From Nitrososphaera sp. (GTDB lineage Archaea; Thermoproteota; Nitrososphaeria; Nitrososphaerales; Nitrososphaeraceae): DNA of 64,000 nucleotides. The stretch is taken from the NCBI GenBank assembly GCA_036003785.1, contig DASYSB010000047.1, forward strand, positions 18,800 through 82,799, read 5' to 3'. Made by a program: the position numbers and the translations under genes. Numbering within the stretch: the first letter of the stretch is position 1; every line of letters starts with the position of its first letter. The notes under the pieces are model-generated. The model had not been told where the DNA came from and made no database searches. It saw only the letters and a list, made by a program, of their open reading frames with translations. Below are positions 12,802 to 43,661 of the stretch, piece after piece.

Positions 12802-12941
12802 GTGTAAAACATATTCTGTCCAATCTTTGTGCGTTCATCCTAACTCCAATGGGAAGCAATTTATTGTTAATCAATCTTGTTAACTAACAAAGTACCATCT
12901 AACTTAATTACCATGGTTTTGCAACTAGTGAAGAAGCGGGA

Positions 12942-13100: not shown

Positions 13101-13167
13101 CATGCTCGAATAAGTCGATTTGCAAGTTTTCTGCAGCGATGACAAAGGTAGAAACAGAAAAGAATCC

Positions 13168-14523
13168 TTAATTCTTGAGTATTGACTCGATCTTGGCTAC
13201 AACCTCATTCGGACTTCTGCCAAAGATTATTATCATTGGCTCTTTGCCAATGTCGCCTTTGTGGTAAACGACGTCTGCTCTTGGGTTCTTTCTAAGAGCC
13301 TGGAGAATTCCCCAATACACGCTCGATCCTTCCTTCTTCTTGATGCTTTTCGGCTCTTTGCTCCTGTCGTAGCTTGACACTGAAAATAATGATCTACACA
13401 ATTTCACAAGCCGGTCGTCGAACCTTATGTTAATACCCGCTCTCATACTAGGGTTAATTCGCATATGCGCAAGTATTGCTGATGCAACATGGCGCGACGC
13501 ACCAAACTCGATGTATGATGCCGGCACTGCGGTGTTACCGATCTTTACTATTCTTCCTCGTACTCCTGCGACTTGTGATATATCTTCCGCGGCAGGCAGC
13601 GCATATACAAAATTCGTTTGAGTTTCAGGTATCAAACGGTAAAAGCCTTCAAGCGTGCTGACATGTTTGACAGCCTGCTGTAATTCTGCCAATACTTGAT
13701 AACGATTGGCATCGCGATAAATGGCAGAAAGTGGATTTGTAACAGGCAAACCTCTACCCACGTTGACAGCATTTTTGATAGCAACATGGACATACTCGTT
13801 GGCCATTTTGCACGCGTCGCCCACTGATATGCCTCTGGCAAGGTATGCGGTGACAGCAGAGGAAAAGTTGCAACCAGAACCATGGCTTTCTTTTATCCTT
13901 ATCCTTGGGTTTGTTAATTTAGTTACCCTGCCTTTGCTGTCAAGCAACAGGTCACTAACGTTCAGAGCCCCGAAGTGGCCACCTTTTACAATGACATTTT
14001 CCGCTCCAAGTCCTCTTATCTTCCTGGCTGCCTCGATACCATCATGTTCGGTCCTGATTTTTATTCCTGCAAGTTTTTCGGCTTCAAACCTGTTGGGGGT
14101 TATCAGCGTGCTCATTGGTAACAATTTTGAAATAAAGGAATCAAACGCGCTGTCGAGAAGCAATTTTGCGCCTGTACCTGCCGCAAGGATAGGGTCAAGC
14201 ACGATTGGAACTCTTGATTTCTTTAGAGATCGATGCACCGCGTCTATTATCTGTCTACTATAGACCATTCCTATCTTAATGGCATTAGGCCGCATGTCTG
14301 TCATGACGGAGAGGATCTGCTGTTCTATAATAGCTGGAGAGACTTCGAATATCTCGGCCACGGTTTTTGTATTCTGCGCGGTTATCGCTGTTATAGCGGT
14401 GCACCCATACACGTCAAGTGCAGAAAACGTCTTGAGATCAGCTTGTATGCCTGCCCCAGCTCCAGAGTCACTGCCTGCTACTGTTAACGCAATCTTCAAG
14501 CAGAGTGATAAAATGTGAAACAC
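13168..14523 (-). CDS. thiD: Bifunctional HMP/HMP-P kinase-thiamine phosphate synthase ThiDN
   Basis: LTVAGSDSGAGAGIQADLKTF, TPNRFEA, HGSGC; C-terminal ThiN domain LIPETQTNFVYA...FGASRHVA...GKEPMI. Confidence 0.95.
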   Translation of the reverse strand: MFHILSLCLKIALTVAGSDSGAGAGIQADLKTFSALDVYGCTAITAITAQNTKTVAEIFEVSPAIIEQQILSVMTDMRPNAIKIGMVYSRQIIDAVHRSLKKSRVPIVLDPILAAGTGAKLLLDSAFDSFISKLLPMSTLITPNRFEAEKLAGIKIRTEHDGIEAARKIRGLGAENVIVKGGHFGALNVSDLLLDSKGRVTKLTNPRIRIKESHGSGCNFSSAVTAYLARGISVGDACKMANEYVHVAIKNAVNVGRGLPVTNPLSAIYRDANRYQVLAELQQAVKHVSTLEGFYRLIPETQTNFVYALPAAEDISQVAGVRGRIVKIGNTAVPASYIEFGASRHVASAILAHMRINPSMRAGINIRFDDRLVKLCRSLFSVSSYDRSKEPKSIKKKEGSSVYWGILQALRKNPRADVVYHKGDIGKEPMIIIFGRSPNEVVAKIESILKN

Positions 14524-14613
14524 TTATTCAACCTAGCGACGATTATGTCCCGGCAGACATTTCACTTGAAGTCCACCACATTGGATTTATAGCTCTTAGT
14601 TGAATTCACAGTA

Positions 14614-14883
14614 ATGCCGATCGATATTGATGAGTTCAAAGGTGGCAAGTCGTCAGACTCATTAATACAAGTAGTAAAGGAATTTCTTCAAAGCCACCGC
14701 GACAAAGCATATCTTGCAACCGAACTATTCGAAGTGATGAAAGGTCGCAAATTAGTATCGCCCGCTGACTTGTTTGAAATCCAGAATGTGCTACACATCT
14801 TAAGCCGGGAACGGACCATCGTTAGCAAGCATGTCGAGACCAAGGAAGGCTTTCAAGCATTCTATAGCTTTAACGAAGGCTGA
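14614..14883 (+). CDS. Small winged-helix-like protein (paralog of 58122-58385)
   Basis: MPIDIDEF...FLQSHRDKAYLATEL; shares its N-terminal pattern with the 58122 ORF. Confidence 0.7.
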   Translation: MPIDIDEFKGGKSSDSLIQVVKEFLQSHRDKAYLATELFEVMKGRKLVSPADLFEIQNVLHILSRERTIVSKHVETKEGFQAFYSFNEG

Positions 14884-14982
14884 GCTTATAATACGCCACC
14901 TGCTTCAAGGCGGCGAATCAAGCTTGACATCTTTTACAGGAAGATAATCAGATAATCTTCTTTAGACTTGTTGGCCTCTATA

Positions 14983-15111
14983 ATGGAGATGAGCAAGAAA
15001 GAACATGATAAGATAACGGGAATGAATCGTAGGAGCAAAGATCAAAAAGAAGAGGATGAAAATCCAACTAACATTGGTCCAGGAGTGACAGAGGAATTTG
15101 AAGACGCCTAA
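14983..15111 (+). CDS. 42-aa charged microprotein
   Basis: Manual translation: MEMSKKEHDKITGMNRRSKDQKEEDENPTNIGPGVTEEFEDA. Confidence 0.4.
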   Translation: MEMSKKEHDKITGMNRRSKDQKEEDENPTNIGPGVTEEFEDA

Positions 15112-15166
15112 TTCGGCTATACTTATCGGACTCCGCGGGCTACAAAAACCAATTTTATCCGCTAAT

Positions 15167-15316
15167 TCAGTCAAAAGGTACTTCGTACATCTTTTTTCTA
15201 TGGCCATACATCTCTTGATGGTCTTCTACGTCTGACATAAACAGAAAGACCGTCTTACATTCCATACAGCAATAGATGGTATCAAGTCGTTCAGCCGCAA
15301 TTGCTTTTTGTTCCAT
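15167..15316 (-). CDS. 49-aa C2H2 zinc-finger microprotein
   Basis: Manual translation: MEQKAIAAERLDTIYCCMECKTVFLFMSDVEDHQEMYGHRKKMYEVPFD (CxxC-x12-H-x5-H with F at the canonical position). Confidence 0.72.
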   Translation of the reverse strand: MEQKAIAAERLDTIYCCMECKTVFLFMSDVEDHQEMYGHRKKMYEVPFD

Positions 15317-15405
15317 AGTCTTCGTGCTAGGATTTGTTATATATCAAGAGCTTGGTGGAAGAAGCTAGAAGATTTTTCTGTATTAACACGACATTCTTTC
15401 GCCAA

Positions 15406-17280
15406 CTAGCCCTTTTCTGATTCTGTTGCATTCTCCAAATCCTTTACGGCATATGTTGATAATGGCAGCGTAAAGGAAAATGTCGCACCTTTACCGTCCC
15501 TATTGTTTTCAGCCCATATACTTCCTCCATGGGCTTCCACAACATTTTTGGCAACATAAAGCCCAAGTCCAGTCCCTCTATCGGACTTGGTGGCAAATTT
15601 AGTAAACAGTTTCGGGTAAATGTCGGGGGCTATTCCATGCCCCGAGTCTCTGACGTGAACTACAGCCTGACCGTCCTTTTCTTCCAATTCCACTGCGACT
15701 TCGCCTTCATCAGTGAACTTTATAGCGTTGCTGAGAAGATTCGAGATAACCTGAAAAATTCTTTCTCTATCTCCGTCAATCATTACAGCCTTGTTGCTCT
15801 TTGGCTTAAACGTCAGCTGCACGCGTTTTTCTTCTGGAATGACACTGCGCATATCATCCAAGATAACTTTGATCTTTTTGGCTAGATCGATTGGTTCCTT
15901 GCTGAGCTGCAGCGTGTTGCTTTCAATTCTCGAAACTTCCAGGATGTCGGATGAGAGGTTCAGAAGGCGTTTGGCGTTCCTCGTGATCATTTCTATTTCA
16001 GCCTTCCGGACGACTATGTCATCTTTTCCTTATGTCTTGAGTTGTTCCTCCAATGCTTCTGCTATGCCAATAAGCGGCTGAATAGGAGTGCGAAGCTCAT
16101 GAGCTGCTATATTGATGAATTCGCGCTGCGCTCTGTCATGACTCTTTAGTCGTTCGTTTGCGACTTCAAGCTTTGCAGTTCTTTCCTTGACTGTACGTTC
16201 AAGCTTCGAATTCCATCTTGCGACCGTCAAAGCAATACCTACGGCAACCCCACCGATGACCACAGGCACAATAGTGCTCAGGTTTCTTTGCTGCTCTATC
16301 AATAGAGCAATATCGGTTGCAAACGCCTTGGGTAGGCTGAGGTGGAGGCTCATTGCATGTTGGACGCTACCGGTTCCCTGGTCGAACGTGACGGGATTAT
16401 AGGCAATAATAAGAGGGGTTCCTGAGGATGAGTATTCTCCTGTGCCGGAATTTCCAGCAATCGAATCCCGCATAATGCCATTGAATGAATCTTGTTCTTC
16501 ACGGGGAAGATAGGTTGAAAACAGAAGATTTTGTACGTCTTCGTTGAAATAATTCTTTCCCAACAGCGCGTCATTTTGAGTATAGAGGATTGTGCCATCC
16601 CTGTCCATTAGACTCACTGCACTCTGCGTGTCGGGTGGAAGCTGCTCCGTGATAGAATCGCCAAGAGACTTTAGATTCATTGATGCAACTACCACTCCTT
16701 TGAATAAACCACTGCTATCCTGAATGGTCGTTATTATGGGGTAGGCAATGTAAATCCTCGGAACGCCATCTACCGAATCGCGAAGGGGGCTGAAGTATGG
16801 CTTATGACTATCTTTCGGATCTGTAAAATATGGTCTATCAGTTCTATCAGCGCCATAATATTGGTCGTAGACTTTTTGATCTTCAAACGCTCCTGCCCAC
16901 TGCAGCTTGCCGTTCTCATCGATCCAAAAATAGCTGTCTGTAAAACCATCGGTAGACTTTTCCGCCGCATCGATAAGTGGTCGGGCCTGCACGTACTCTC
17001 CGCGCTGTACTAATGGAGCATTTGCTATTATTTCCAAATTGCTTTTGATTGATTCAAGTCTATTTTCTAGGGATTTAGACAAATCATATGCCTGTATCCT
17101 AGCATTATTTTTCAGGTCGTCAGTAGCTGCTAATGCAATCTTTTCGGATGTTAGAATCGAGTATTGGTATGATAATAGAGAAAGTCCGATCGCTACGGCT
17201 CCAATAATTATTAACGGGATCGCGGTACGAAAAGTTGGGCTACGCGATGTCTTGAATGGAACTCGCTGCGAGTCTGACAA
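15406..17280 (-). pseudogene. Cache-domain sensor histidine kinase interrupted by one in-frame TAA
   Basis: TM-Cache-TM-HisKA (FINIAAHELRTPIQP), then TAA at 16030-16032, then 13 in-frame codons (GKDDIVVRKAEIE) joining the HATPase_c ORF (QVISNLLSNAIKFT, DSGHGI, GTGLGL). Confidence 0.9.
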
Positions 17281-31844: not shown

Positions 31845-32789
31845 TTGCACAGTAATCTCGTGCTTGCTATAGAAGCGGCCGGCGTAAGCAAAATATACAA
31901 GGGTGCCAGGCAGGCTGCGCTATCCGACGTTTCGCTCCAAATAGAGAAGGGCAAGATCTTGACCTTACTCGGCAGAAACGGCGCGGGCAAGACAACCTTT
32001 GTGCGCATTTGTGCAACCCAGCTGATGCCCAGTGCCGGGAGCATCAACGTACTTGGCTATGACGTGGTAAAGCACGCTAGGCAAATCCGTGACTTGATTT
32101 CCGTAGTTCCACAAGAGGGCCGTCCACTCAGGGCATTGACGTCATGGGACCACATCTACAACTGGCTGCAGATAAGAGGCGATGACAAACAAACTGCAAA
32201 AGCTAAAACGGAGGACATACTGCGCAAGCTTGAGCTCTACGAAGCGCGGGACAGGCCAGCTATGAACCTGTCAGGCGGCATGAAGCAGAAAATCCTGGTA
32301 GCAATGGCGATGGCTACGGACGCGCAGCTATTGTTTCTAGACGAGCCGACAATTGGGCTGGACCCGGTCTCCAGGAGGCAAGTCTGGTCCGCAATAAAGG
32401 ACTGGAAGACCAAAGGGGGCTCGATTCTTTTGACGACACACTACATGGACGAAGCCGAGATGCTATCAGACTATGTTGTCATTATCGACAAGGGCGCGGT
32501 GATCGCTCGTGGAACCATCCAGGAGCTGCGCAGGGTTATACCGCAGAACATCCGAGTAGATATTGCGCGCGACGGGCTTGACATTGACGCGCTCAAGCCT
32601 TACGGGTCGGTAGTCGACACGGGCACTGGGATGCTCCGTGTCTTTACCTTAGAGTCAGCGGTTCGAGAGCTGTCCGAGCTCGCGCTACGCAAGAACCTTT
32701 TGTTTACAGTATCGCCGGTCACACTCGATGATGTGTTTGTCTATCTCGCAGGAGGCGGCATTGGAGATGACGAGAATGGCAGAGACTAG
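31845..32789 (+). CDS. ABC transporter ATP-binding protein (DrrA-like exporter)
   Basis: GRNGAGKTT, LSGGMKQK, LFLDEPT, TTH. Confidence 0.95.
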   Translation: MHSNLVLAIEAAGVSKIYKGARQAALSDVSLQIEKGKILTLLGRNGAGKTTFVRICATQLMPSAGSINVLGYDVVKHARQIRDLISVVPQEGRPLRALTSWDHIYNWLQIRGDDKQTAKAKTEDILRKLELYEARDRPAMNLSGGMKQKILVAMAMATDAQLLFLDEPTIGLDPVSRRQVWSAIKDWKTKGGSILLTTHYMDEAEMLSDYVVIIDKGAVIARGTIQELRRVIPQNIRVDIARDGLDIDALKPYGSVVDTGTGMLRVFTLESAVRELSELALRKNLLFTVSPVTLDDVFVYLAGGGIGDDENGRD

Positions 32790-33525
32790 CATGCTTCCTG
32801 TAAGGCAGGCGTTTCTTATCGCCTACATGACAGGTGTGCTCTGGCTGCGGAGGAACCCTATGTCGCTCGTCTTCACAGCTATAAGCCCATTCTCGCTTCT
32901 GTTTGTACTCTTTATCATTAGCAACGGTCAGTATGTCGACTTTGCAGTTGCAGGAAGTCTTGTGATGGCGCTCGTTGGTTACGGCCTCGCGCTCGGTCAA
33001 GACATTTCGTTCTACAAGACGGAGTACAAAATACAGGACGTATTTGTCGCGTCGCCTGTGTCACCATTAACATACATGATGGGTCTTGCGCTTTCCGAGC
33101 TGCTCTTTGGATTGCCCGCGCTTATTGTACTGGCATCACTTGTCGTGTTTTCTGGAGCGTCAATATTTAGCATCCCACTGCTCGCGGCCACTATCCTGCT
33201 TATCTGGGGGTCCATGTCAGCGATGGGATTCTTTTTGTCCTCGCATATGCTACATATGCGTAACGCGACTCAGGTCATTTCGTTTGTGAACGTGATACTT
33301 GCGATTCTTCCGCCCGTGTTCTACTCGATAGATCGCATGCCAGATATTCTGCGGCCGCTTGCCTACGCAATACCTACCACCCATGCGTCGTTGATACTTC
33401 AGTACGTCATGAATAACAAAACTCCAGAAGAATGGTCGGTCGGCTTTGGGTTTGGCGTACTGATCGCCTACCTGATCGGCTTTGTGGCGCTGGCAAAAAC
33501 GAAGGCGATATGGCGGGAGAACTAA
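32776..33525 (+). CDS. ABC-2 type transporter permease
   Basis: Six TM; PPVFYSID.MP; PTTHA. Start is probably ATG 32776 or 32791. Confidence 0.92.
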   Translation: MAETSMLPVRQAFLIAYMTGVLWLRRNPMSLVFTAISPFSLLFVLFIISNGQYVDFAVAGSLVMALVGYGLALGQDISFYKTEYKIQDVFVASPVSPLTYMMGLALSELLFGLPALIVLASLVVFSGASIFSIPLLAATILLIWGSMSAMGFFLSSHMLHMRNATQVISFVNVILAILPPVFYSIDRMPDILRPLAYAIPTTHASLILQYVMNNKTPEEWSVGFGFGVLIAYLIGFVALAKTKAIWREN

Positions 33526-33540
33526 TAAGAATTCGATAAA

Positions 33541-33562
33541 AAGGTCACGGTGGGATTTGGAC
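33541..33562. repeat. att site (displaced copy of tRNA-Thr 3' end)
   Basis: aaggtcacggtgggatttggac is identical to 41643-41664 and extends to 28 nt with 2 mismatches. Confidence 0.92.
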
Positions 33563-33589
33563 ATACGAAAATGAAAACAATGTTCGTTT

Positions 33590-33608
33590 AATTATACGCC
33601 GTATAATT
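33590..33608. promoter_or_regulatory. 19-bp palindrome just inside the left att site
   Basis: AATTATACG-C-CGTATAATT. Confidence 0.5.
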
Positions 33609-33870
33609 TTATCTACATTGTCTATTTGCAAACCACGCTCAATTTAGTGTTTTGATCTGATCAACTCGACATCTATAACATTCTACTAGATGTATAGTTG
33701 ACCAGACGATTGAGCACGAAAACGACATAGACAAGCTAGATAGAGGCGCGGTTGAATCGAAGACCCCCTACCTGCAAAAAGCTAGGTCAAAATTTACCGT
33801 GCTGGTCAAGAACTACGAGTAAATTTTATGTTTTGATCTTAAATAGCCCGCCAAGAATCTAAGTGAGTCA

Positions 33871-34582
33871 TTGTTCGATAGAATCGAGTATTTTAGATTG
33901 GCACATCATGACATTCAGCAGCTTAATCGCGCATTTGTCGATGCTCAAAATGAGGTCAGAGCTCTATACCAGAATGCTGTAAGAGAGAAAGATGCCAGAA
34001 TTACCATATTCGCCAAGTGTATCAATGTAGTTATGTGCGCTGACTTTGGGTTAGGTTTTTTCAATGCCCAAATGCTTAACAAAGAACGTTTTAAAGAGAT
34101 ACTCAGAACGCCTCTGACAGATAAGCAAAAGATTGCAATTCAAGATGAATTTCAACAATTTATCAAAATGGGCATGATTAATTTCTTTCACGCGTCGCTT
34201 GAGAGTTCTTTTAGAACTTTCGTTACAATCGCAGACCCAAATTTCACCAAGACAGATGATAGTTTCAAGAAATCTCTATGATCATACGCTAGTAGAATTA
34301 GGGCTTGGCGAATACCGACCCGCTCTTGATTTACTTAGATTATGCCGAAATACTCTGCATACAAACGGTTATCATAATGCCAAAAACGAGACGATCACTT
34401 ACAATAGTAAAGAATACCACTTTATCAGAGGTCAAATGCCACAATACTTTGAATGGTCATTTCTTGCTGTCTTGTTGTACGATATTCGTGTCATGCTGCT
34501 AAAAATTGTAAAAACACAACCGTTTGCAAATGCAGATCGTATCGATGACCCTTTTATCACACCAGAGCGCCCTACCGAGTAG
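33871..34582 (+). pseudogene. Frameshifted hypothetical protein with possible HEPN-like RNxxH motif
   Basis: ORFs 33871-34281 and 34199-34582 join as ...DDSFK-NLYDHTL... if one A is removed near 34268-34271. Contains FFHASLESSFR and LRLCRNTLHTNG. Confidence 0.6.
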
Positions 34583-35468
34583 AGAGAGATCGTATTTTAG
34601 TTAGTTCGCCTAGGTTAGGCTTTTTGTTGCGAATTATCTTTAACTCTTTCTCTGATAGCACGACATTGGCTCGCCTCTCGTTACTATAAAGCTCGACGTT
34701 TAGCCTGTTATGATTCGCATTACTTAATGTAATTCGCTTGCCAAAACTTGGTATTACTAGCCCGGCATACTTGCTTTCTTGAATAGAAGTAATCACTAGC
34801 CGTCTAGTCGAAACTTCATTTATCGACTTCAACATTCTAGCAATGACCGTTTTTGCTTCTTTTTTCTTGATGTTTGGGTCGTCGTCAAACATATCTAGCA
34901 GGCCGGGCACGATAACAACGCTTGGCTGATACTTTGCAATGACTTTCGGTAGTTCTCGCTGTAACAGGCTTTTTAGCTGGTAAATAGTGAAAGTTCGGCT
35001 AACAATTATTCTGTCTAGCGAGCGTTTAAGATCGAGGCCGTATTGCTTTACGAAATTCACTGTCTGGTAAAAATCTGACTTGTTACCTGCATCGACAATG
35101 ATTACATGGGACGAGCCAAGCCCGCCGTAATTCGTTGGCAATAGTGCCCTTACGCAAAGCCTCGTTAATAGCAAGTTCGCCTTGTAGCCGGCAATACAAA
35201 GCGTACCTGTCGTCGATAACGGCATAAACTTGCTGATCTTTGCTATATCGATCTTGAATCTGCAAAGGTCGTAGGCTGTCTGAAATCTTGGTATCTTTGG
35301 CTCTAATTCGGTTTCTTTATTTCGCTTCTCTAACGTACTTGCCAGAAAAGCGCCGCATTTAGGGCAATCTTCGATTACAGTTGAAATTTCAATTTGTTCG
35401 TTGGTTTCTTTTAGAATTGAACCGCACCGGGTGCAAAGGTATTGTGATAATGGGCTAAAGCTCTGCAA
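34572..35468 (-). CDS. Zn-ribbon plus degenerate RadA/Rad51-like ATPase fold
   Basis: CTRC...CPKC; LTRLCVRALLP..GG, VIIVDAGN, LDRIIVSRTFTIYQL are RecA-fold core motifs. GxxxxGKT is absent (CIAGYKAN in its place). Confidence 0.8.
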   Translation of the reverse strand: MQSFSPLSQYLCTRCGSILKETNEQIEISTVIEDCPKCGAFLASTLEKRNKETELEPKIPRFQTAYDLCRFKIDIAKISKFMPLSTTGTLCIAGYKANLLLTRLCVRALLPTNYGGLGSSHVIIVDAGNKSDFYQTVNFVKQYGLDLKRSLDRIIVSRTFTIYQLKSLLQRELPKVIAKYQPSVVIVPGLLDMFDDDPNIKKKEAKTVIARMLKSINEVSTRRLVITSIQESKYAGLVIPSFGKRITLSNANHNRLNVELYSNERRANVVLSEKELKIIRNKKPNLGELTKIRSLSTR

Positions 35469-35506
35469 GGTTTGACTTTGAAAGGCTGTCTGTTATAAGG
35501 CGTGTA

Positions 35507-35541
35507 GCACCTTACCGAGACCCCCCCTCTCTGCAAGGTGC
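35507..35541. promoter_or_regulatory. Inverted repeat between divergent promoters of the PolB2 cassette
   Basis: GCACCTT...AAGGTGC arms with an imperfect inner stem and C7 loop, lying between TTATAA (35493) and TTTATC (~35549). Confidence 0.45.
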
Positions 35542-35578
35542 GCCCTGCTTTATCTAAAACTTGAAGCGTGGTTACATT

Positions 35579-35746
35579 ATGCATCATAGGCACGACTATC
35601 TAGCTCAAGCTACCAATAATCACAAAGAATGCACCGAATGCAACAAGAGAACCCTGTATTATTGCGTCAAATGCGGTGCTTGCTATTCGTGTCACTGGCG
35701 AATCGAAAGACCTGCTAGGCAGATCACGCTAGTCGCTGCATCTTAG
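35579..35746 (+). CDS. Small Cys-rich zinc-finger protein, first gene of the polB2 operon
   Basis: ECTECNKRTLYYCVKCGACYSCH (three CxxC). Confidence 0.7.
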   Translation: MHHRHDYLAQATNNHKECTECNKRTLYYCVKCGACYSCHWRIERPARQITLVAAS

Positions 35747-35754
35747 GTGATTCT

Positions 35755-36024
35755 ATGGGCCGAACGATACCGTCTTTCAGATTAGCTCTAGCTGACGAAG
35801 AAAAAGAATGGTCTGACTACCGCAAACATTTGACAATGAAAGAAAGACGAGCTTTCGACGAAATGTTTGCAATCGTCAGACTTTACATTTCTGCTTGCTC
35901 GTGCGCTGCCAAACCAGTTAGAATTTACGTTATTGTAACAAGCATTCTTTTACATCATTACTTAGAGTTACACGATCTAGCCGACACACTACGAGCAACC
36001 AGCGAGGCGCTAGATTACTCGTGA
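35755..36024 (+). CDS. PolB2-associated small alpha-helical protein (arCOG07300-like)
   Basis: MGRTIPSFR...EWSDYRKHL...RAFDEMF is the pattern of the small gene that precedes polB2 in archaea. Confidence 0.8.
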   Translation: MGRTIPSFRLALADEEKEWSDYRKHLTMKERRAFDEMFAIVRLYISACSCAAKPVRIYVIVTSILLHHYLELHDLADTLRATSEALDYS

Positions 36025-36287
36025 CTTTAGATACAAAAGACAACATTGTAACGCAAATTATTCAGACTTATGGCGCTTATCGCGATGCTTTGCCTGCCGA
36101 GAAACGAAAACGCTTTGACGAACTAATGAATTTCTTGTACGAGTTTATCGAAGCTATCAACGCCAAAGACGAACCGTTTGCAGAAGAAACGGCCCTAGTT
36201 ACGCTGGTTCTAAAACAACATTTGATTATCGAAGGCCTTAAAGAACAAGCGGCAAATCTGCGCAAAAAGCTACAAGGGCACAAGTAA
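36021..36287 (+). CDS. Second PolB2-associated small helical protein (probable paralog)
   Basis: YRDALPAEKRKRFDELM...AINAKDEPF parallels YRKHLTMKERRAFDEMF; GTGA overlap with the upstream gene. Confidence 0.7.
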   Translation: MTLDTKDNIVTQIIQTYGAYRDALPAEKRKRFDELMNFLYEFIEAINAKDEPFAEETALVTLVLKQHLIIEGLKEQAANLRKKLQGHK

Positions 36288-38567
36288 TTGGCTGTTTCAG
36301 GCTGGCTTTTCGACGCGTACCCACTAAAAGACAAGATGGTTTTCTGGGTCAAAACTGAAAACGGCAAGGCGGTGCGCCTCGAAGATAACTGGTCACACTC
36401 GGTTTACGTCGCCGCCGACAATAAGCGCGACCTTGAGCTATTATCAAGAAACGAGGCAGTAAAGCACTACTTGCGAGGTCTACCGAGCAAGTCGGTAGAT
36501 GTCAAAGGCATTGATTTTGTCTCAAGATATGAAAAAATCAACGATCACGAGCAAACTGATGTTTTAAAACTAACGCTCGCAGATTCAAAAAAGGCTGTAA
36601 CACTTGCCAACGTTATCGAAGAAATCGATTTTGATAAATTCAGGCTTTACAACGTCGATATTTTACCGCCGCAAGCATACTTTTACGAGCATGACTTGTA
36701 CCCGCTTGCTAAATGCCAAGTCGTACAAAACAACGGTAAACTTACATGGCATTGCGAAAACCACTTGAAAGAACCTGATTACGAACTGCCTGAATTTAGA
36801 ATCGCAAATCTTGACGTTTCGCTAAAACAAGAAGGCTGTTTACCTCGATTCACTGACAAGATCGCAAGCATTACACTAAAGCTAGACAACGAGATAGTCG
36901 AGATTCGGCGACAGTCAGAGCAAGACGCACTTTACGATTTTGCCAATGAAATTGCAAAAATCGACCCCGACTTTGTATTTACAATAGACGGCGACGAATT
37001 TCTTTTGCCCTACTTGACCGCACGAGCGACAGACAATAAAATACAACTTGTGCTTGACCGCGAAGGCTTGGCAGTCTCGCAGCCGTCGAAAAATGGTATT
37101 ACATATTTTAGCTACGGTCGCGTTCATTATCGGCCCTCGACAGTCATGCTTTACGGTCGAGTGCACGTTGATAGTCGCAATTCGTTCATACTAGATCACT
37201 CTGCTTTGCATGGCTTGTACGAAGTTGCAAGACTTTGCAGAATACCGTTTCATACATGCGCAAGAGCCACTATTGGGCGCTGTCTTTCAAGTCTTCAAAT
37301 GTACCACGCTTTCAAGCGCGATTTACTCGTGCCCTACAAGCCTGTAAACACTGAAAAATTCAAAACATTTAACGAATTACTGCTTGCTGATCGAGGCGGA
37401 CTTATTTTCGAGCCGGTTGTAGGCGTGCACGAGAACGTCGCAGAATTTGACTTTACGAGCCTATACCCCAACATCATGGCAAAGCGCAATGTTTCGGGTG
37501 AAACTGTAAATTGTGCATGCTGCCAAGATTCAAAGAACGTCGTTAAAGGTCTGGGTTATCACATTTGCGAAAAGCGTCGAGGCATTGTATCTCAAGCCCT
37601 AGAGTTACCTTTAGAAAAGCGAGCGAAATACAAACAACTAAAGAAAACAACCACCGACAGCGCACGTTTTGATATTTACGATTCGAGACAAGACGCGTTG
37701 AAATGGCTAGGCGTAGTTTCGTTTGGTTATTTGGGTCATGCTAATAGCAAGTTTGGTTTGATCGATTCTCATATTGTAGTATGCGCTATCGACCGCGAAG
37801 TTTTACTTTTAACACGTAACCTTGTCGAAAGCAAAGGCTACACGTGCTTACATGGCATTGTCGATAGCTTATGGCTGCAAAGACCGGGCGCTACAAAAGC
37901 CGACTATGCCGAGTTAAAAGAACCTATCGAGCAGGCTACAGGCTATGACATTTCATTCGAGGGCGTTTACAAATGGCTAGCATTCGTGTCGTCTAAGGTA
38001 GATAAAATTTCGCCTGTGCCTAATCGCTATTTTGGCGTCTTTGAAGACGGCGAGCTAAAAGACCGTGGTATTGAAACGAGGCGACATGATACGCCACCGT
38101 TATTCTCACAGTTTCAGCGCGAAGTCTTGGCTATAATGGCAAAGGGCAATAATATCAAAGAAGTTAAGGCGCTAATGCCAAAAGTTCACGATCTATTTCA
38201 GAAATACAGAGAGATGCTAAAAGACGGCAGGGTGCCGTTGGTTGATTTGATTTTTACAAAGATGTTATCTAAAGATTCTAACGCTTATACTGTAAACACT
38301 GTAGAAATGGGCGCTACGTATCAGCTTTTAGACGAGGGCAAATCTATGCGTGCGGGCCAAGTATTGCAATACGTGATTGTTGATTATTATCGCAAAAATT
38401 CAAGAAAGCGAAGCGTACCAGTCGAACTAATTAATGAGAAAACGACTTACGACGCTAACAGATATGTCGAATTGCTTGCAGAAGTATGCAATTCAGTTAC
38501 AGAGCCTTTTGGCTACACAATACAGGCAAATGACCAAGACAATTTAATAGCGTATAGCGCCAGTTGA
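36288..38567 (+). CDS. polB2: Family B DNA polymerase, PolB2 group, exonuclease motifs degenerate
   Basis: Motif A EFDFTSLYPNIM, motif B RQDALKWLGVVSFGYLG, motif C LHGIVDSLWL (first Asp of DTDS replaced), NRYFG, RGIETRRHDTP. Confidence 0.9.
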   Translation: MAVSGWLFDAYPLKDKMVFWVKTENGKAVRLEDNWSHSVYVAADNKRDLELLSRNEAVKHYLRGLPSKSVDVKGIDFVSRYEKINDHEQTDVLKLTLADSKKAVTLANVIEEIDFDKFRLYNVDILPPQAYFYEHDLYPLAKCQVVQNNGKLTWHCENHLKEPDYELPEFRIANLDVSLKQEGCLPRFTDKIASITLKLDNEIVEIRRQSEQDALYDFANEIAKIDPDFVFTIDGDEFLLPYLTARATDNKIQLVLDREGLAVSQPSKNGITYFSYGRVHYRPSTVMLYGRVHVDSRNSFILDHSALHGLYEVARLCRIPFHTCARATIGRCLSSLQMYHAFKRDLLVPYKPVNTEKFKTFNELLLADRGGLIFEPVVGVHENVAEFDFTSLYPNIMAKRNVSGETVNCACCQDSKNVVKGLGYHICEKRRGIVSQALELPLEKRAKYKQLKKTTTDSARFDIYDSRQDALKWLGVVSFGYLGHANSKFGLIDSHIVVCAIDREVLLLTRNLVESKGYTCLHGIVDSLWLQRPGATKADYAELKEPIEQATGYDISFEGVYKWLAFVSSKVDKISPVPNRYFGVFEDGELKDRGIETRRHDTPPLFSQFQREVLAIMAKGNNIKEVKALMPKVHDLFQKYREMLKDGRVPLVDLIFTKMLSKDSNAYTVNTVEMGATYQLLDEGKSMRAGQVLQYVIVDYYRKNSRKRSVPVELINEKTTYDANRYVELLAEVCNSVTEPFGYTIQANDQDNLIAYSAS

Positions 38568-38574
38568 ATTTAGA

Positions 38575-39441
38575 ATGAGCGAGGTCTTAATTGGTTGTTC
38601 TGGCTGGTCTTATGGCGACAAGGCAGAGAAAGGCGGCTGGGTCGGTTCATTCTACCCAAATACAACGACAAAAAGATTGCCATATTATTCTCAATACTTC
38701 AATACAGTTGAGATCGACGCGACTTATTATGATAAATTTTACAAATACATGACTCAAGACACTTTCAAAAAATTAGCTGAAGCAACGCCAGATAACTTTC
38801 AGTTTTCGACTAAAGTACCTGAAACGATAACGCGAGAAAAGAAGCTAGGCGAGGGCTCGCTAGAACTATTCAACGAGTTCTTAGACAAAACTGCGCCATT
38901 GAGAAAAGCCGGCAAGCTAGGCGCTATTTTGTTTCAAATGTCGCCCAACTTTACCGTAGATGATTTCAAAAACGCTGAAATCTTCTTAGATAGACTACCT
39001 CGTGACTATGATTATGCGCTTGAATTTCGGCATGCGAGCTGGCAAACTGAGGGCGCGCCAGAACTGCTAAAGCATTACAATATCGCAAGCGTAATGACTG
39101 ACTCACCAGACCCAAAACTAAAGTTTTTAGCAGAACCAATAGTTACCGCAGATCATGCCTTCATCAGGTTTCACGGTAGAAACGAGGGTTTCTGGTACAA
39201 TTATCTTTACATAAAGAAAGAGTTAGAACCTTGGGCTGAAAAGGTCAAGATAACAAAAGACCTGAAAATAAAGAAACTGCGCATTTACTTTAATAATCAC
39301 TATGGAGGCAAGGCTGTTCTCAATGCACTACAATTCAAAGAAATGCTAGGCGAGAAACTATCTAAAGAGCAACTAGATGCGAGACAAAGGGCCGAAACTC
39401 ATCTTACAGGCAAAGACAATTTGCAACAATGGTTTCAGTAA
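38575..39441 (+). CDS. DUF72 domain-containing protein
   Basis: IGCSGWSY, YSQYFNTVEIDATYY, FSTKVPETIT, LFQMSP, ALEFRHASW, FIRFHGRN, IYFNNHYGGKAVLNA. Confidence 0.93.
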   Translation: MSEVLIGCSGWSYGDKAEKGGWVGSFYPNTTTKRLPYYSQYFNTVEIDATYYDKFYKYMTQDTFKKLAEATPDNFQFSTKVPETITREKKLGEGSLELFNEFLDKTAPLRKAGKLGAILFQMSPNFTVDDFKNAEIFLDRLPRDYDYALEFRHASWQTEGAPELLKHYNIASVMTDSPDPKLKFLAEPIVTADHAFIRFHGRNEGFWYNYLYIKKELEPWAEKVKITKDLKIKKLRIYFNNHYGGKAVLNALQFKEMLGEKLSKEQLDARQRAETHLTGKDNLQQWFQ

Positions 39442-39490
39442 ATGACAGACATCAAAGAGATAAATAATCAATACAAATAGCAGAAAAGTA

Positions 39491-39853
39491 ATGCCAGCAA
39501 ATCGCAAAGTTAGCGTCGCATGGCAGATTGTATTCACGTTCATACCAATAGTTAATTTCTGGGCATTTTATAGAGTCAAGAAATTGCAGAAGTACGTGCT
39601 CTATGTAATGGCGCCCTCTATACTACTAGCGATTACTCTACTTGCTTACCCTCTTAGCTATGAAATGTCGTTCAGCCAAGACTTTTGGGCGGCTGACAAG
39701 AAGGTTATTTCTGAAATGCAATTTGCGACTTACGTAATAGGCAATATTATAGGCTGGGCACTTCAGGGATTATCAATTTACCTTGTGATAATTTGGTCGA
39801 GACAGCATAACAAACAATTCGACCAGCCCACGACCCAAGCCAAGCAACCGTGA
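39491..39853 (+). CDS. Membrane protein (3 TM)
   Basis: VAWQIVFTFIPIVNFWAFYRVKKL plus two further TM segments. Confidence 0.75.
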   Translation: MPANRKVSVAWQIVFTFIPIVNFWAFYRVKKLQKYVLYVMAPSILLAITLLAYPLSYEMSFSQDFWAADKKVISEMQFATYVIGNIIGWALQGLSIYLVIIWSRQHNKQFDQPTTQAKQP

Positions 39854-40091
39854 GCCGTGCATCATACATTCATTTTGATTGAACAATGCACGGCGAACGA
39901 AGCAAAGCGCAGTGAGCCGACACCCTGAGTTTGCACTTATGTTTACGGCTGTAGTGTAGATTTCAAAAATAACGAGTAAAAACGCATACGGTCTTGTTCT
40001 GAAGATCAACTGTCTAAGCAACAGTTGATTTAGAAAATGTATGCCCCCTAGGTACAAAATTTCGAGTCAAAAAAGCCGTGCTGGCAGTTTG

Positions 40092-40379
40092 CTATGACCA
40101 ATTTTCATGTCTTGGGTCTGGGTTGCTTACGATAGCTCTTGACTTCAGACCGGCAATTACAAACCAAGCGCCTATGCCCACGAAAAAGAATGATATCATA
40201 AACCAAAAGTACGTGAATTGCGTTATTTCTCTAGAACCCGAACCCTCATCGTGACCAGTCAACCCCGCCGGCCCAAAGGTCGTAGCAGGCGGTAGACTAC
40301 CCGCCAAAATTACCCAGCTGACGGGCCCTATGCCTACAGCAAGTAAGCACAAGCCAATTATTAGCTCAAGTCGTTGCAT
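40092..40379 (-). CDS. Small two-TM membrane protein
   Basis: Two hydrophobic helices with a Gly/Pro linker. Confidence 0.65.
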   Translation of the reverse strand: MQRLELIIGLCLLAVGIGPVSWVILAGSLPPATTFGPAGLTGHDEGSGSREITQFTYFWFMISFFFVGIGAWFVIAGLKSRAIVSNPDPRHENWS

Positions 40380-40541
40380 CGGTTGTGATCTTGCTCATGC
40401 CAATAGATTTAGCTTTCTATAAGCAATTGTTGTATCTATAGAACAAAGTTTAAGAACTCTTATACCCGTGATTTAGGCACACAAACGCATCGCAGAGATA
40501 TCTTAAAGAAGAAATAGATCAGGGTCTACTAAAGACCATCA

Positions 40542-41096
40542 TTGGCAGACGATCTTTGGCTAGTCTTGGGTACTTGGGCCGCTGTATCCACAGCCATCTT
40601 TGCGGTCTGGCGAGAAACCGAAAACAACAATAAAACCCGTAAATTGAACGGGCTGGCCCTCGTTTTTCAGAAACTAAATGGTGAGACTCAAAGATACGCA
40701 CGAAAGCAAGTAGTAACCGCTTACTATCAATACCTCAAGAAGAATGACGAGCCTCTAGAATACACGCCATTCAATTTTGAAGACCACCCGGTTTATGATA
40801 TCGTTCAGTTCGACAAAAACGTACTGCCATACGTCGAAATAGTAAGGGCAGATTTTGAAGAAATTGCGGTAATGATAAAAAACGGTCTTGTAGACCAAAA
40901 GGCTTTTTTTGACGCATACTGGGGAGCAATGCTTCGATGTTATATGGCGCTTCACGGCTACATAGAAACGGTTCGTGAAAAATCGGGTACAAAAGAATAC
41001 ACAATTTACTTTCAAGAACAAAGTGAAGAACACTGTCTTAGCTATTGGCGAGACAATCATTACGATTCAGACATAATATTTTACGCTGACCAATGA
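40542..41096 (+). CDS. DUF4760-like membrane-anchored protein
   Basis: N-terminal TM; FEEIAVMIKNGLVDQKAFFDAYW...YIETVRE...YF pattern. Confidence 0.7.
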   Translation: MADDLWLVLGTWAAVSTAIFAVWRETENNNKTRKLNGLALVFQKLNGETQRYARKQVVTAYYQYLKKNDEPLEYTPFNFEDHPVYDIVQFDKNVLPYVEIVRADFEEIAVMIKNGLVDQKAFFDAYWGAMLRCYMALHGYIETVREKSGTKEYTIYFQEQSEEHCLSYWRDNHYDSDIIFYADQ

Positions 41097-41229
41097 ATCA
41101 CTTACTACATTCGCTAGGTTGGTATTTTAGTTACTTTGGTTTAGAGCTTGGCGTGTGCTAAGGCACATTGTTGATAAACAAAATGACAGAAGATAGCGCA
41201 CTAGACCGTGAGATTGAAAGCTGGCAAGG

Positions 41230-41538
41230 CTATTTTGGTAGCCCGAATTCGCTTTTATTGACCTCTTTAATCAATTTTAAAGTCAATTTGTCGCCGACCA
41301 TGAGATTTAACCGCTTTGCAAATTCTTTGCTCATTAGCATGTTAAGAACAAAATCGCGTCGATCTTTGCCATAGTACAAAAGCTGAACGCCCACGTATTC
41401 TGGGTCTATTTCTCTCGTTGTTACTTCATATGCGGGTGTAGGCAAAGGGTATTGAAATGCAACCTCTGAAGGGTCTCTTTGATAATTTGATGGAAGCGAC
41501 TTTACTATTACTTGTACGTCTACTTGCTCACTAGCCAT
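41230..41538 (-). CDS. Hypothetical protein with AbrB/SpoVT-like C-terminus
   Basis: MSKEFAKRLNLMVGDKLTLKL. Confidence 0.55.
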   Translation of the reverse strand: MASEQVDVQVIVKSLPSNYQRDPSEVAFQYPLPTPAYEVTTREIDPEYVGVQLLYYGKDRRDFVLNMLMSKEFAKRLNLMVGDKLTLKLIKEVNKSEFGLPK

Positions 41539-41643
41539 AGTGAGATAAAGTTGCTACGCGCTTATTGGCTTTTCTTAACGTTTTTTCTTGTTTCGTATGC
41601 CAAACCCACCCTTAAGGCAAGCCTACTAAAAATACGAACATGA

Positions 41644-41735
41644 AGGTCACGGTGGGATTTGGACCCACGACCTGCTGATCTCTTGGCACAGAAGTTTACA
41701 AGTCAGCCGCTCTGGCCAGGCTGAGCTACGTGACC
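41644..41735 (-). tRNA. tRNA-Thr(UGU) with 17-nt intron at 37/38
   Basis: Acceptor stem GGTCACG/CGTGACC, D-arm GCTC/GAGC, anticodon stem GCTGA/TCAGC, loop CT-TGT-A^A. Bulge-helix-bulge TAA-CTTG/CAAG-AGA; T-stem GTGGG/CCCAC; discriminator U. Confidence 0.82.
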
Positions 41736-41829
41736 TCGAGCGCTCTAATGGTACTGCGTTTTATTAATTAAACGGCATTTTGGCATTTTGGAAAAGGTTA
41801 ATCTACGCCTTAAGTGCTAATTACTACAG

Positions 41830-42060
41830 TTGGCGTACACTGTAACAGGGCGGGACAACATCAAGCTTCTCGTCTTCATGATCGCAGCTGCTGTATTTTT
41901 TGTGGTGACTCTCTTTCTCTCTTTCTTTATTGTAATAGTGGCCATCAACAATGCAGACGTATCTGCAGAGGACGCGCCAAACATGTTCATGCTCGGATTG
42001 ATCCCGCCGTCGATTGGGACATTCTTGCTATTCACCAAAGTTTTTGGCCGCTTTATGTAA
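41830..42060 (+). CDS. Small two-TM membrane protein
   Basis: Two hydrophobic helices. Confidence 0.7.
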   Translation: MAYTVTGRDNIKLLVFMIAAAVFFVVTLFLSFFIVIVAINNADVSAEDAPNMFMLGLIPPSIGTFLLFTKVFGRFM

Positions 42061-42096
42061 ACAATGTATTTAAATCGCATAACACGGGGTGAACTT

Positions 42097-42360
42097 GTGC
42101 CAAAGTTCGAAGTGCAGGTAGTGATTGAAAACAAACCCTACATCAACGACCCGGAAGGCGAGACGATTCACCGCGACCTTGTCGTCAAGGGCGGCTACTC
42201 AAACGTTCAGTCCGTTCGATCTGCAAAGATGCTAACGATGGTTGTAAGTTCAAAATCAGAGAAAGAGGCCGAAGCGGTTGTCAAAAAGCTGTGTGCGGAA
42301 CTCCGCATTTTCAATCCAGTTGTCAGCAATGCTTCGATCAAGGCTGCTGGTAAACGTTAA
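42097..42360 (+). CDS. purS: Phosphoribosylformylglycinamidine synthase subunit PurS
   Basis: NKPYINDPEGETI...SVRSAK...LCAELRIFNPVV; GTG start inferred. Confidence 0.92.
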   Translation: MPKFEVQVVIENKPYINDPEGETIHRDLVVKGGYSNVQSVRSAKMLTMVVSSKSEKEAEAVVKKLCAELRIFNPVVSNASIKAAGKR

Positions 42361-42386
42361 GAAAATTGTTGCTCAATCATGTTCAG

Positions 42387-42848
42387 CTAATGCTTGTCAT
42401 CCTGGTCCATCGTCGTGATTACATCGTCAATGTTGCTAAAATCGCTCAAAGCTCCTTCAAGCAATAGTGTAGTCCTCAGATGCCTTGCAAGGTCCGTCAC
42501 CGTAATGATGCCGACCAGCTTACCGCCCTCCATTATCGGGAGACGGCGTATCTTGTGGTTCACCATCCTCTGCACTGCGACTTCGATTGGCATCTCTGGG
42601 TCGGCAGTCGTCAGTATCTTTGACATGATTTCGCCTATTTTCACGTCCGCAATAGGCAGCTCCTTGGCGCATATCTTTTTGATGAAGTCCCTCTCGCTCA
42701 CGATGCCTACAGGGTCTCCATTCTTTACCACAAACACAGAGCTGATGCCCTTCTCTGCCATTACCTTGGCAGCTTCCAGCGCCGATTTGTCATGGTCTAT
42801 CATGACTATCTGCTTTGTCATGATATCACGAACTACTCCAGCTGCCAT
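42387..42848 (-). CDS. CBS domain pair protein
   Basis: VRDIMTK...VGIVSERD...IRRLPI..GKLVGIITVTD. Confidence 0.93.
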   Translation of the reverse strand: MAAGVVRDIMTKQIVMIDHDKSALEAAKVMAEKGISSVFVVKNGDPVGIVSERDFIKKICAKELPIADVKIGEIMSKILTTADPEMPIEVAVQRMVNHKIRRLPIMEGGKLVGIITVTDLARHLRTTLLLEGALSDFSNIDDVITTMDQDDKH

Positions 42849-42965
42849 CCAAATTTCTCAGATTCAGCCGAAGATAAAAACAATGCTATAGTGATCCATA
42901 TTCTGATGCGAAATTCGCTAATCTGAAGATATTAATACGAGCTCTGTCAAGCTCCACTCGCAGTA

Positions 42966-43661
42966 ATGACGAAGATTGGAATTGCCGTTTTCCCCGGCAG
43001 CAACTGCGATCGCGACGTTCATCATGTTTTAAACAACGTAATAGGCGTTCATGCAGACTATATCTGGCACACCAAGGACCACATCACAGGCTATGACGCA
43101 ATGATAATTCCCGGCGGCTTTGCCTTCGGCGATCGGCTGCGCGCGGGCATAATTGCGGCCCACAGCCCGATAGTGCAGGAAGTGAAAAGAATGGCGAAAG
43201 ACGGCCTGCCCATACTTGGCATATGCAACGGCTTTCAAATCCTAGTTGAATCTGGCTTATTGCCCGGCGCCCTCATGATGAACGACTCGCTCCGCTTCGT
43301 ATGCAGATGGACAGAGGTTGAGGTAAAGAACAACAAGACACTTTTTACGAGCGAGTTTGCGCCAAGCCAGACATTTTCCATTCCGGTGGCGCACGGTGAA
43401 GGGCGCTACGTTGCCGACAACAAAATATTGAAAGAGCTAAAGAAAAAGAACCAGATTGTCTTGCAATATTCCAACGACGATCCCAATGGATCTTCAGACC
43501 TTATCGCGGCAATTTGCAGCGAAGACGGTAACGTGATGGGAATGATGCCCCACCCTGAGAGGGCGAGCGAAAGCATACTTGCAGCGGAAGGCTCGAAGAA
43601 TGCAGCCATTACGATTTTCAGATCGCTAGTGTCTAACCTCAAGCCAAAGGCGATAGCATAG
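42966..43661 (+). CDS. purQ: FGAM synthase glutaminase subunit
   Basis: FPGSNCDRD, PGGFAFGD, LGICNGFQIL, MMPHPER. Confidence 0.97.
   Translation: MTKIGIAVFPGSNCDRDVHHVLNNVIGVHADYIWHTKDHITGYDAMIIPGGFAFGDRLRAGIIAAHSPIVQEVKRMAKDGLPILGICNGFQILVESGLLPGALMMNDSLRFVCRWTEVEVKNNKTLFTSEFAPSQTFSIPVAHGEGRYVADNKILKELKKKNQIVLQYSNDDPNGSSDLIAAICSEDGNVMGMMPHPERASESILAAEGSKNAAITIFRSLVSNLKPKAIA

Follow-up and report, generated by a model that had tools for sequence, protein, structure and literature searches.

A probable clade-specific variant of the archaeal PolB2 mutasome operon on a tRNA-Thr island of soil Nitrososphaerales

The archaeal family B polymerase PolB2 was linked by Makarova et al. in 2014 to a small arCOG07300 gene and an inactivated RadA (PMC4104785), and in 2025 Timinskas and Venclovas modelled a heteropentamer of PolB2, the inactivated RadA (iRadA) and a trimer of the arCOG07300 protein PPB2 (PMC11791011). 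The hallmarks of PolB2 are a motif C that has another residue for the first Asp of DxD (S. islandicus has IID), a decayed exonuclease site and a D(K/R) motif before the palm; PPB2 is marked by an MGRT arm at its N-terminus, including Arg3 and Arg9, and just one of the copies bears this arm where the gene is duplicated, and DUF72, SRAP and orc1/cdc6 genes are enriched near polB2 (PMC11791011). The Sulfolobus enzyme Dpo2 is described as a damage-tolerance extender polymerase (PMC7390963, PMC8764526). An integrated element with these genes is also on record: NitGar-E5, 25 kb in length and located at a tRNA-Lys of N. gargensis, carries iRadA, two arCOG07300 genes and a PolB (PMC6563490). Here we analyze a PolB2 locus of Nitrososphaera sp. 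(assembly GCA_036003785.1, contig DASYSB010000047.1); "the window" denotes the whole stretch of 64 kb (64,000 nucleotides, nt) in which it lies, and all positions are those of the window.

With good confidence, we read this locus as a variant, specific to one clade, of the archaeal PolB2 translesion "mutasome" operon and as the cargo of an 8.1-kb, integrase-less tRNA-Thr(TGT) island in soil Nitrososphaerales. The reading builds on what could be established directly: the gene set, its motifs and their conservation, the attachment site (att) repeats, the polymorphism in the population, and both the coding status of the leading zinc-finger gene (ZnF) and its coupling to PPB2.

Composition and distribution of the operon

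As the original prediction had it, five co-directional plus-strand genes lie next to a divergent RadA paralog: all six open reading frames (ORFs) were found in place (Table 1), with intergenic gaps of 8, -4, 0 and 7 nt along the series ZnF, PPB2a, PPB2b, PolB2 and DUF72. Related loci are cited by number (L001-L173) and database proteins as P0032 and P0126.

The polymerase matches the Pfam families DNA_pol_B (PF00136, 3e-34) and DNA_pol_B_exo1 (5e-7); its top NCBIfam models are NF004416 (366 bits) and NF004418 (360 bits), both "type B DNA polymerase", and DNA-polymerase-I-type models reach at most 200 bits, all of these scores lying below the equivalog cut-offs. Every motif that had been quoted for it, the PolB2 signatures as well as the degenerate proofreading motifs, was located in the 759-residue protein: LDVS at 175-178, GDEFLL at 235-240, KWLGVVSFGY at 472-481 and HGIVDS at 522-527. 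ExoI (LDVS) has lost its Glu, and ExoII (GDEFLL, compared with GDNF(D)FPYL in the Pyrococcus (Pab) PolB) has lost its Asp; judged by these residues, the 3'-5' exonuclease site is lost, as in enzymes of the Dpo2 type. Just ahead of the palm domain, D368-R369 is invariant in 24 sequences and provides the conserved D(K/R) motif, 155 residues ahead of I524; the corresponding distance from 253-DK to 401-IID in S. islandicus PolB2 is a similar 148 residues (PMC11791011). Motif C itself reads I524-V525-D526 in place of DxD, with the first Asp replaced and the second kept, and the Asn-Ser of motif B is replaced as well. Together with the original 2014 proposal (PMC4104785), these replacements speak for a catalytically dead polymerase whose complex only regulates replication or stalled forks. 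We find this hardly probable: D388 of motif A, D526 and K/R472 are invariant across 24 homologues, and an active extender polymerase with a substitution of this type has been described, the S. islandicus Dpo2 with its IID (PMC8764526).

The TTG start of PolB2 at 36288 is backed by N-terminal conservation. One metagenome gene call starts later, and because the call on record does so, exact-protein look-ups with the full polymerase and with P0032 gave no match. Four Cys within residues 409-428 (37512-37571), namely C409, C411, C412 and C427, do not vary among 24 homologues and are a possible metal site; the Pyrococcus PolB has two Cys at roughly this position in a HMMER alignment. A PCNA-binding motif was considered and dismissed: the polymerase tail QDNLIAYS resembles a PIP (PCNA-interacting peptide) motif, yet it is not conserved in the clade, and iRadA has no conserved tail either.

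The divergent gene encodes a Rad51-type protein (PF08423, 6e-6; 26.1 bits vs a cut-off of 22) in which IAGYKAN, residues 92-98, stands in the place of the P-loop. The Walker A pattern G....GK[ST] occurs in none of about 50 iRadA homologues and is present in the genuine RadA encoded on L079, in keeping with the description of this gene as a divergent, ATPase-dead RadA paralog. Its N-terminus holds a CxxC...CxxC zinc ribbon (C12-C15 and C35-C38; 35355-35435) in place of the HhH domain. The ribbon is common to most Nitrososphaerales iRadAs with a complete N-terminus (about 40 homologues), in either gene orientation; the 2025 mutasome paper (PMC11791011) makes no mention of zinc, including this ribbon. 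With a Rad51/RadA core, a destroyed P-loop and no HhH domain, the protein is by its sequence an iRadA of the arCOG08101 type.

PPB2a begins with MGRTIPSFR, which places Arg at positions 3 and 9, and PPB2b has no MGRT arm. The two are distant paralogs (BLASTP E = 4e-6), and the precomputed annotation of an identical metagenome contig lists PF26485/DUF8156 on both genes; we assign them on these grounds to the PPB2/arCOG07300/DUF8156 family, with one armed copy of two as in the published rule. The last gene of the operon matches DUF72 over the entire profile (PF01904, 2.1e-57, positions 1-217 of 217) and the structure 1vpq in the PDB (5e-31). The DUF72 TIM barrel is said to be related to UV-damage endonuclease.

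PolB2 relatives were found in at least 562 stretches of GTDB species-representative genomes, of which the best 80 were analyzed as loci. These come nearly all from metagenome-assembled genomes of Nitrososphaerales or other Nitrososphaeria. One contig among them, L004 (LDIY01000068.1, 4.9 kb), is binned as "candidate division TM6 bacterium" and probably mis-binned: it carries iRadA, ZnF, PPB2 and PolB2 of the Nitrososphaera type, with a PolB2 68% identical to that of the window and a ZnF in which Trp replaces C35. A neighbour-joining tree of 92 PolB2 sequences, read together with a tblastn search of the loci with the window proteins, delimits one clade of 23 tips with an inverted iRadA and a ZnF before PPB2a, in which PolB2 is at least 57% identical to that of the window. 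The only member without ZnF, L002, has an HTH_45 winged-helix gene (L002:9144-9422) between iRadA and the operon. In the remaining clades, PolB2 is either solo or closes the canonical co-directional series iRadA-PPB2a-PPB2b-PolB2. ZnF is thus a mark of one PolB2 clade. DUF72 adjoins PolB2 in 11 of 82 loci, co-directionally in none but the window's own contig and L002, and convergently in a separate solo-PolB2 clade.

Large solo-PolB2 clades (L032, L028, L033, L041, L056, L065; L014 and its neighbours) have neither iRadA nor PPB2 within 10 kb upstream. The convergent DUF72 of one solo-PolB2 clade lies about 40 nt downstream of the polymerase and is followed in L032 by a gene that appears TFB-like by eye. 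A stand-alone Y-family polymerase is found about 8-11 kb downstream of PolB2 in a deep-branching co-directional clade (L061, L068-L074, L081).

The tRNA-Thr island in the soil population

The operon had been placed on a mobile tRNA island, and the tRNA-Thr gene, an att repeat, a dip in G+C content and empty-site contigs all confirm this location. The 3' end of the tRNA-Thr gene, AAGGTCACGGTGGGATTTGGAC on the plus strand, is repeated exactly at 33541-33562. The spacing of 8102 nt matches a drop in G+C from about 0.49-0.51 outside to 0.41-0.44 within approximately 33.5-42 kb. The tRNA gene was missed by ARAGORN at its default settings and recovered both by Rfam and by intron-aware ARAGORN. For the presence or absence of the island, contigs of four soil metagenomes were placed on window positions 32000-43500: one X3 contig runs along the left flank to 33532 and resumes at 41643, omitting 8110 nt, and in one X1 contig the sequence from 41643 onwards directly follows the left flank, TCGATAAA (join at about 33540). 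Word depth in the soil metagenomes amounts to about 35-56 over the flanks vs 0-6 over most of the island. The precise empty site and the drop in depth therefore identify the island as a presence/absence polymorphism, with about a tenth of that soil population, or less, having it. A JGI soil contig (L001, 8149 bp) is 99.975% identical to window positions 33457-41605; an excised circle was ruled out for it, as it follows the linear sequence of the window including the left junction. The closest relative of the locus, L002 (PolB2 79% identical, on an 878-kb contig), resides on an island flanked by perfect 47-nt tRNA-Val(TAC) repeats 14.2 kb apart, with a tyrosine integrase beside the distal repeat.

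None of the scanned island ORFs in the window matched an integrase, replication or defence family (Pfam on ORFs of at least 95 residues, PHROG and PADLOC). The sole PADLOC match, a polymerase-in-homing-endonuclease hit, was spurious, and a candidate integrase remnant at the 33.6-34.6 kb end of the island was abandoned after PHROGs and Pfam gave no match. The distal direct repeat and the precise empty site make the island a tRNA-targeted integrative element, one without an integrase of its own. It was gained by site-specific integration, its mobility is well supported, and it is now either mobilizable only in trans or a decayed remnant.

These data also bear on what the operon is for. Krupovic 2019 counts the PolB operon of NitGar-E5 among the replication genes of cryptic integrated elements (PMC6563490), and the cassette has been found on tRNA islands three times (in the window, L002 and NitGar-E5), as would suit a replication module that copies its own element instead of serving host damage tolerance. 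We give this explanation little credence: the polymerase is without proofreading and carries the PolB2 signature, the same operon occurs in hundreds of Nitrososphaerales genomes, mostly with no tRNA or att site nearby, and the Pfam, PHROG and PADLOC scans matched no primase, helicase, origin-binding protein or integrase among the island ORFs. Moreover, Sulfolobus Dpo2 is reported to be dispensable for replication and required for damage-induced mutagenesis (PMC7390963, PMC8764526). A casposon or another protein-primed PolB self-synthesizing element has next to no probability, although Thaumarchaeota do carry family 1 casposons with pPolB genes (PMC6563490, PMC4104785): no Cas1 family was matched by the scanned island ORFs of at least 95 residues (Pfam), the borders of the island repeat a tRNA 3' end in direct orientation, unlike the inverted repeats with target duplication of a casposon (no search for inverted repeats was made), the polymerase has its best PDB and NCBIfam matches among primer-dependent archaeal PolBs, and the partners in the operon are PPB2 and iRadA.

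As for the remaining cargo, the two overlapping ORFs at the left end have no counterpart in other PolB2 loci (tblastn) and may be one frameshifted gene. At the right end, the 120- and 95-residue ORFs match no family and appear membrane-like by eye, and the DUF4760 protein has weak PHROG matches. Elsewhere in the window, at about 11000-17000, a second stretch of low G+C (0.43-0.45 vs about 0.48-0.50) is maybe another acquired region.

Table 1. Features of the PolB2 operon and of the tRNA-Thr island (window positions; aa, amino acids)
Feature	Position	Strand	Description
attL (distal copy of the tRNA-Thr 3' end)	33541-33568	.	22 nt exact (33541-33562), 28 nt at 93%; left border of the island, with G+C drop
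Two overlapping ORFs (cargo)	33871-34582	+	136 and 127 aa; no Pfam, PHROG or PADLOC family
iRadA (RadA/Rad51-fold paralog)	34572-35468	-	298 aa; Pfam Rad51; divergent from the operon
Divergent promoter region of iRadA and operon	35469-35578	.	Sequence and 9-sequence alignment
ZnF (first operon gene)	35579-35746	+	55 aa from ATG 35579; 61 aa from TTG 35561
PPB2a (small partner 1)	35755-36024	+	89 aa; ORF list; PF26485 on identical metagenome gene; MGRT motif per PMC11791011
PPB2b (small partner 2, armless)	36021-36287	+	88 aa; starts MTLDTK; PF26485 on identical metagenome gene; BLASTP vs PPB2a
PolB2	36288-38567	+	759 aa; Pfam DNA_pol_B, motifs, homologue alignment
DUF72 TIM-barrel protein (last operon gene)	38575-39441	+	288 aa; Pfam, PDB; 7 nt 3' of PolB2
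Right-hand cargo	39491-41538	mixed	120-aa ORF (+), 95-aa ORF (-), DUF4760 protein (+), 102-aa ORF (-) next to attR
tRNA-Thr(TGT) with 17-nt intron	41642-41736	-	ARAGORN with introns; Rfam 41644-41735, 56 bits; attR = 41643-41664 (3' end)

The zinc-finger gene and its promoter

The ZnF ORF at the head of the operon is present as predicted; its proposed start, TTG 35561, gave way to ATG 35579, which the sequences identify as most likely the true one: all homologues begin at the equivalent Met, and 22 nt separate this ATG from a conserved TATA box upstream. Numbered from the TTG, residues H11, C24, C27, R30, T31, C35, C38, C41, C44, H45 and E49 are invariant, which amounts to a Cys6His2 protein with eight potential zinc ligands. 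Among 63 distinct core sequences, differences at codon positions 1/2/3 number 3155/2790/11160; owing to this excess at the third position, the ORF, which the metagenome gene caller had overlooked, can be regarded as coding and under purifying selection. A word-indexed search returned 81 proteins, and those with a source name all stem from Nitrososphaera or a relative. HMMER, run exhaustively against 1.84 billion representatives, returned 143 clusters of 42-206 residues, and a metagenome scan returned 378 relatives. The protein matches no Pfam family, and the best match of its profile to the PDB is the bL32 zinc ribbon at E = 0.28. The AlphaFold2 model has a pLDDT of 66 (76-82 across residues 21-50), and a Foldseek comparison with the PDB gave no significant fold relative (best E = 4.1, to C1, B-box and HIT-like domains).

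The divergent promoter region spans 110 nt. On the iRadA side, TTATAA (35493-35498) lies about 27 nt from the start of the gene; on the operon side, a C-box, CCCCCTCTC (35523-35531), is followed by AAGGTG (35535-35540) and by the TATA box, TTTATCTA (35549-35556). C-box, AAGGTG and TATA box are conserved blocks in a 9-sequence alignment, the span from C-box to TATA box is at or near a fixed 34 nt in every composite match scanned, and the distance of 22 nt between TATA box and ZnF ATG suggests leaderless or short-leader transcripts. The C-box was also considered as a general promoter feature and rejected in this role: with 3 occurrences vs 4.7 expected, the bare box shows no enrichment in the window, and the composite of C-box and TATA box occurs there once. 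Most ZnF paralogs in unrelated contexts have the composite ahead of them as well, a pattern that fits an operator for ZnF autoregulation or for a shared regulator. ZnF, which we conjecture to be a small nucleic-acid-binding factor, would most likely regulate its operon via the conserved C-box that precedes the TATA box of the ZnF gene itself, a role to which we assign about an even chance. The HTH_45 protein is a second candidate for binding the C-box; in eight metagenome loci (L133-L140, e.g. L139:4388-4672) it is divergently paired with a stand-alone ZnF. In most relatives (L006, L008, L057 and others; alignment columns about 55-70), the stretch from the iRadA start to the TATA-like box of this gene contains the palindrome CATGTT-GA-AACATG, which the window has not conserved.

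The genomic context of ZnF points to a second role. In the best 80 metagenome loci, ZnF has PPB2 and/or PolB2 directly downstream in 48 cases and other neighbours in 30, and the remaining 2 leave no room for a gene. The ZnF stop precedes an MGRT start by 6-23 nt in 49 of 101 motif instances, and pairs of ZnF and MGRT-armed PPB2 are kept without PolB2 or iRadA within several kb (L142:1457-1963, L147:5010-5549, L160:3380-3997). Moreover, in P0126 (from an ENA metagenome contig of 1306 nt), one reading frame runs through ZnF into the MGRT start of PPB2, owing to a natural fusion or an assembly error. SigR, which serves here as an analogy only, has a zinc-binding anti-sigma factor as its partner. 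PPB2 has been reported to be similar to the N-terminal domain found in sigma factors (PMC11791011). All this would be in line with a ZnF that is an accessory partner or chaperone of PPB2 and belongs to the mutasome as a subunit, structural or regulatory, rather than being a DNA-binding transcription factor; it might, for example, bind PPB2 in the manner of a zinc-thiolate switch and release it on damage or oxidative stress. Against such binding stand most PolB2 operons, which function without ZnF, the loss of ZnF from L002, and the ZnF paralogs that exist without any PPB2; furthermore, the sole fusion, P0126, may be the product of misassembly, and no in-frame fusion was found among the 173 fetched loci. 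We therefore rate a partner of PPB2 as a possible role of ZnF, of clearly lower probability than regulation via the C-box. In L171:936-1800 and L173, the order is ZnF-PPB2-DUF72, likewise with neither PolB2 nor iRadA within several kb, and in L160 an M3-like peptidase follows PPB2.

ZnF paralogs are also found next to other DNA-damage genes. In L083:6001-8243, L088:3820-5852, L089 and L090, more distant paralogs lie 38-129 nt upstream of a gene for a protein of 612-624 residues in which DUF72 is fused to a complete Y-family polymerase (DUF72-PolY; IMS, HhH and IMS_C domains; Pfam IMS 1e-43, DUF72 3e-22); no mention of this fusion was found in the literature searched. These loci share a conserved chromosomal neighbourhood in Nitrososphaera, with PPIase, TetR and MFS genes upstream. 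A long paralog of 153-159 residues with a second Cys/His-rich domain at its C-terminus lies 6 nt downstream of Ku (Pfam 3.8e-45) in L162:2106-3445, where it overlaps the start of an ORF of about 380 residues without a Pfam family; it recurs in L158, L164, L165 and L167, and the arrangement suggests an operon of the type Ku-ZnF-X. The long ZnF and the downstream ORF are present in L159 too, with the contig start too near to show Ku. Given its occurrence with PPB2/PolB2, DUF72-PolY and Ku, the ZnF family is tied to three DNA-damage modules. More speculatively, the Cys6His2 protein might found an undescribed Nitrososphaerales family that controls DNA-damage tolerance, either as a C-box (auto)regulator or stress sensor or as a zinc-thiolate switch gating PPB2 and thereby the assembly of the mutasome, with paralogs that do likewise for DUF72-PolY and Ku; we consider this doubtful. 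To our knowledge, ammonia-oxidizing archaea have no counterpart of LexA or of the Orc1-2 pathway, and such a family would, if real, offer a first handle on their damage response.

Proposed function and comparison with known systems

By analogy with Sulfolobus Dpo2 and the published AlphaFold models, PolB2, without proofreading and with its catalytic Asp residues kept, would join iRadA and a PPB2 trimer made up of one MGRT-armed PPB2a and two armless PPB2b. In line with published work, iRadA would dock on the beta-alpha motif ahead of D368-R369. After DNA damage, the complex would extend primer ends that are mismatched or distorted by a lesion, with mutations as the price, and DUF72 would probably process the lesion or the DNA end.

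Several points weigh against this reading of the locus and of its regulation. The function of PolB2 here would be carried over from distant Sulfolobales enzymes, and no RNA run among those looked at contains the locus. DNA binding by ZnF is a conjecture, owing to the moderate pLDDT of the model and the lack of a structural relative. L002 has the composite straight before the TTG-MGRT start of PPB2a, without a ZnF gene, and no C-box precedes the Ku operons, nor is a clear one present ahead of ZnF-DUF72-PolY. Finally, with neither an integrase nor a replication gene on the island, its present-day mobility is unproven.

In the single archaeon in which this was tested, damage-induced mutations stem mainly from the PolB2 mutasome. 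With the cassette on a small island present in a minority of the soil population, mutability would therefore be a horizontally traded, polymorphic trait in ammonia oxidizers. Moreover, the ZnF family and its promoter box are concrete candidates for what regulates translesion synthesis in Thaumarchaeota or controls its assembly, and the DUF72-PolY fusions lend independent support to a role of DUF72 at DNA lesions.

The original prediction had described the locus as an expanded, horizontally mobile damage-tolerance complex with several undescribed traits. PolB2, its partner and an inactive RadA on a mobile tRNA island hold; most of the novelty does not, since the duplication of PPB2 and the enrichment of DUF72 (PMC11791011) as well as the location on a tRNA island (PMC6563490) are already published, and the zinc finger is the one trait of these not found described. 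In light of NitGar-E5, the island reading is hence right and not new. NitGar-E5 shares with our locus the tRNA-targeted integration into a Nitrososphaera genome and the set of iRadA, two arCOG07300 genes and PolB; it differs in its length of 25 kb, its tRNA-Lys target, its co-directional iRadA and the lack of a listed ZnF, whereas the island described here measures 8.1 kb, targets a tRNA-Thr and carries no integrase.

A comparison with the bacterial imuA-imuB-dnaE2 mutasome had also been drawn, and it holds for the architecture. Both ImuA-ImuB-DnaE2 and UmuD'2C-RecA (Pol V) combine an error-prone polymerase with a RecA-family protein and small subunits, and these systems are damage-inducible and sometimes borne on plasmids or other elements. 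In contrast, their polymerases belong to families C and Y and not to family B, ImuB and UmuD have no equivalent here, and iRadA is of the Rad51/RadA type; none of the DnaE2, ImuB and ImuA families appeared in the Pfam or NCBIfam results for the locus. Because no homologous parts are shared, the comparison is one of analogy only. The DUF72 protein resembles its family (PF01904; 1vpq, 1vpy, 1ztv) in its full-length Pfam match and TIM barrel, and differs in being translationally adjacent to PolB2 here and fused to a Y-family polymerase in related archaea.

The closest match is the archaeal PolB2 mutasome itself. Our locus has all three of its components with their defining motifs, a duplicated PPB2 with a single MGRT copy and a DUF72 gene nearby, and evidence of horizontal transfer among TACK archaea is a further common trait. 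It departs from the described systems in the zinc ribbon of iRadA, which is Nitrososphaerales-wide, and in having no conserved PCNA-binding motif at the C-terminus of PolB2 or iRadA. In addition, iRadA is inverted and divergent, a Cys6His2 gene leads the operon, and DUF72 is part of it, directly behind PolB2; these three traits were not found in the literature searched. What is new in comparison with known mutasomes is thus the inverted iRadA, the leading Cys6His2 gene with its conserved C-box promoter, the inclusion of DUF72 in the operon, and a ZnF family linked to PolB2, DUF72-PolY and Ku alike.

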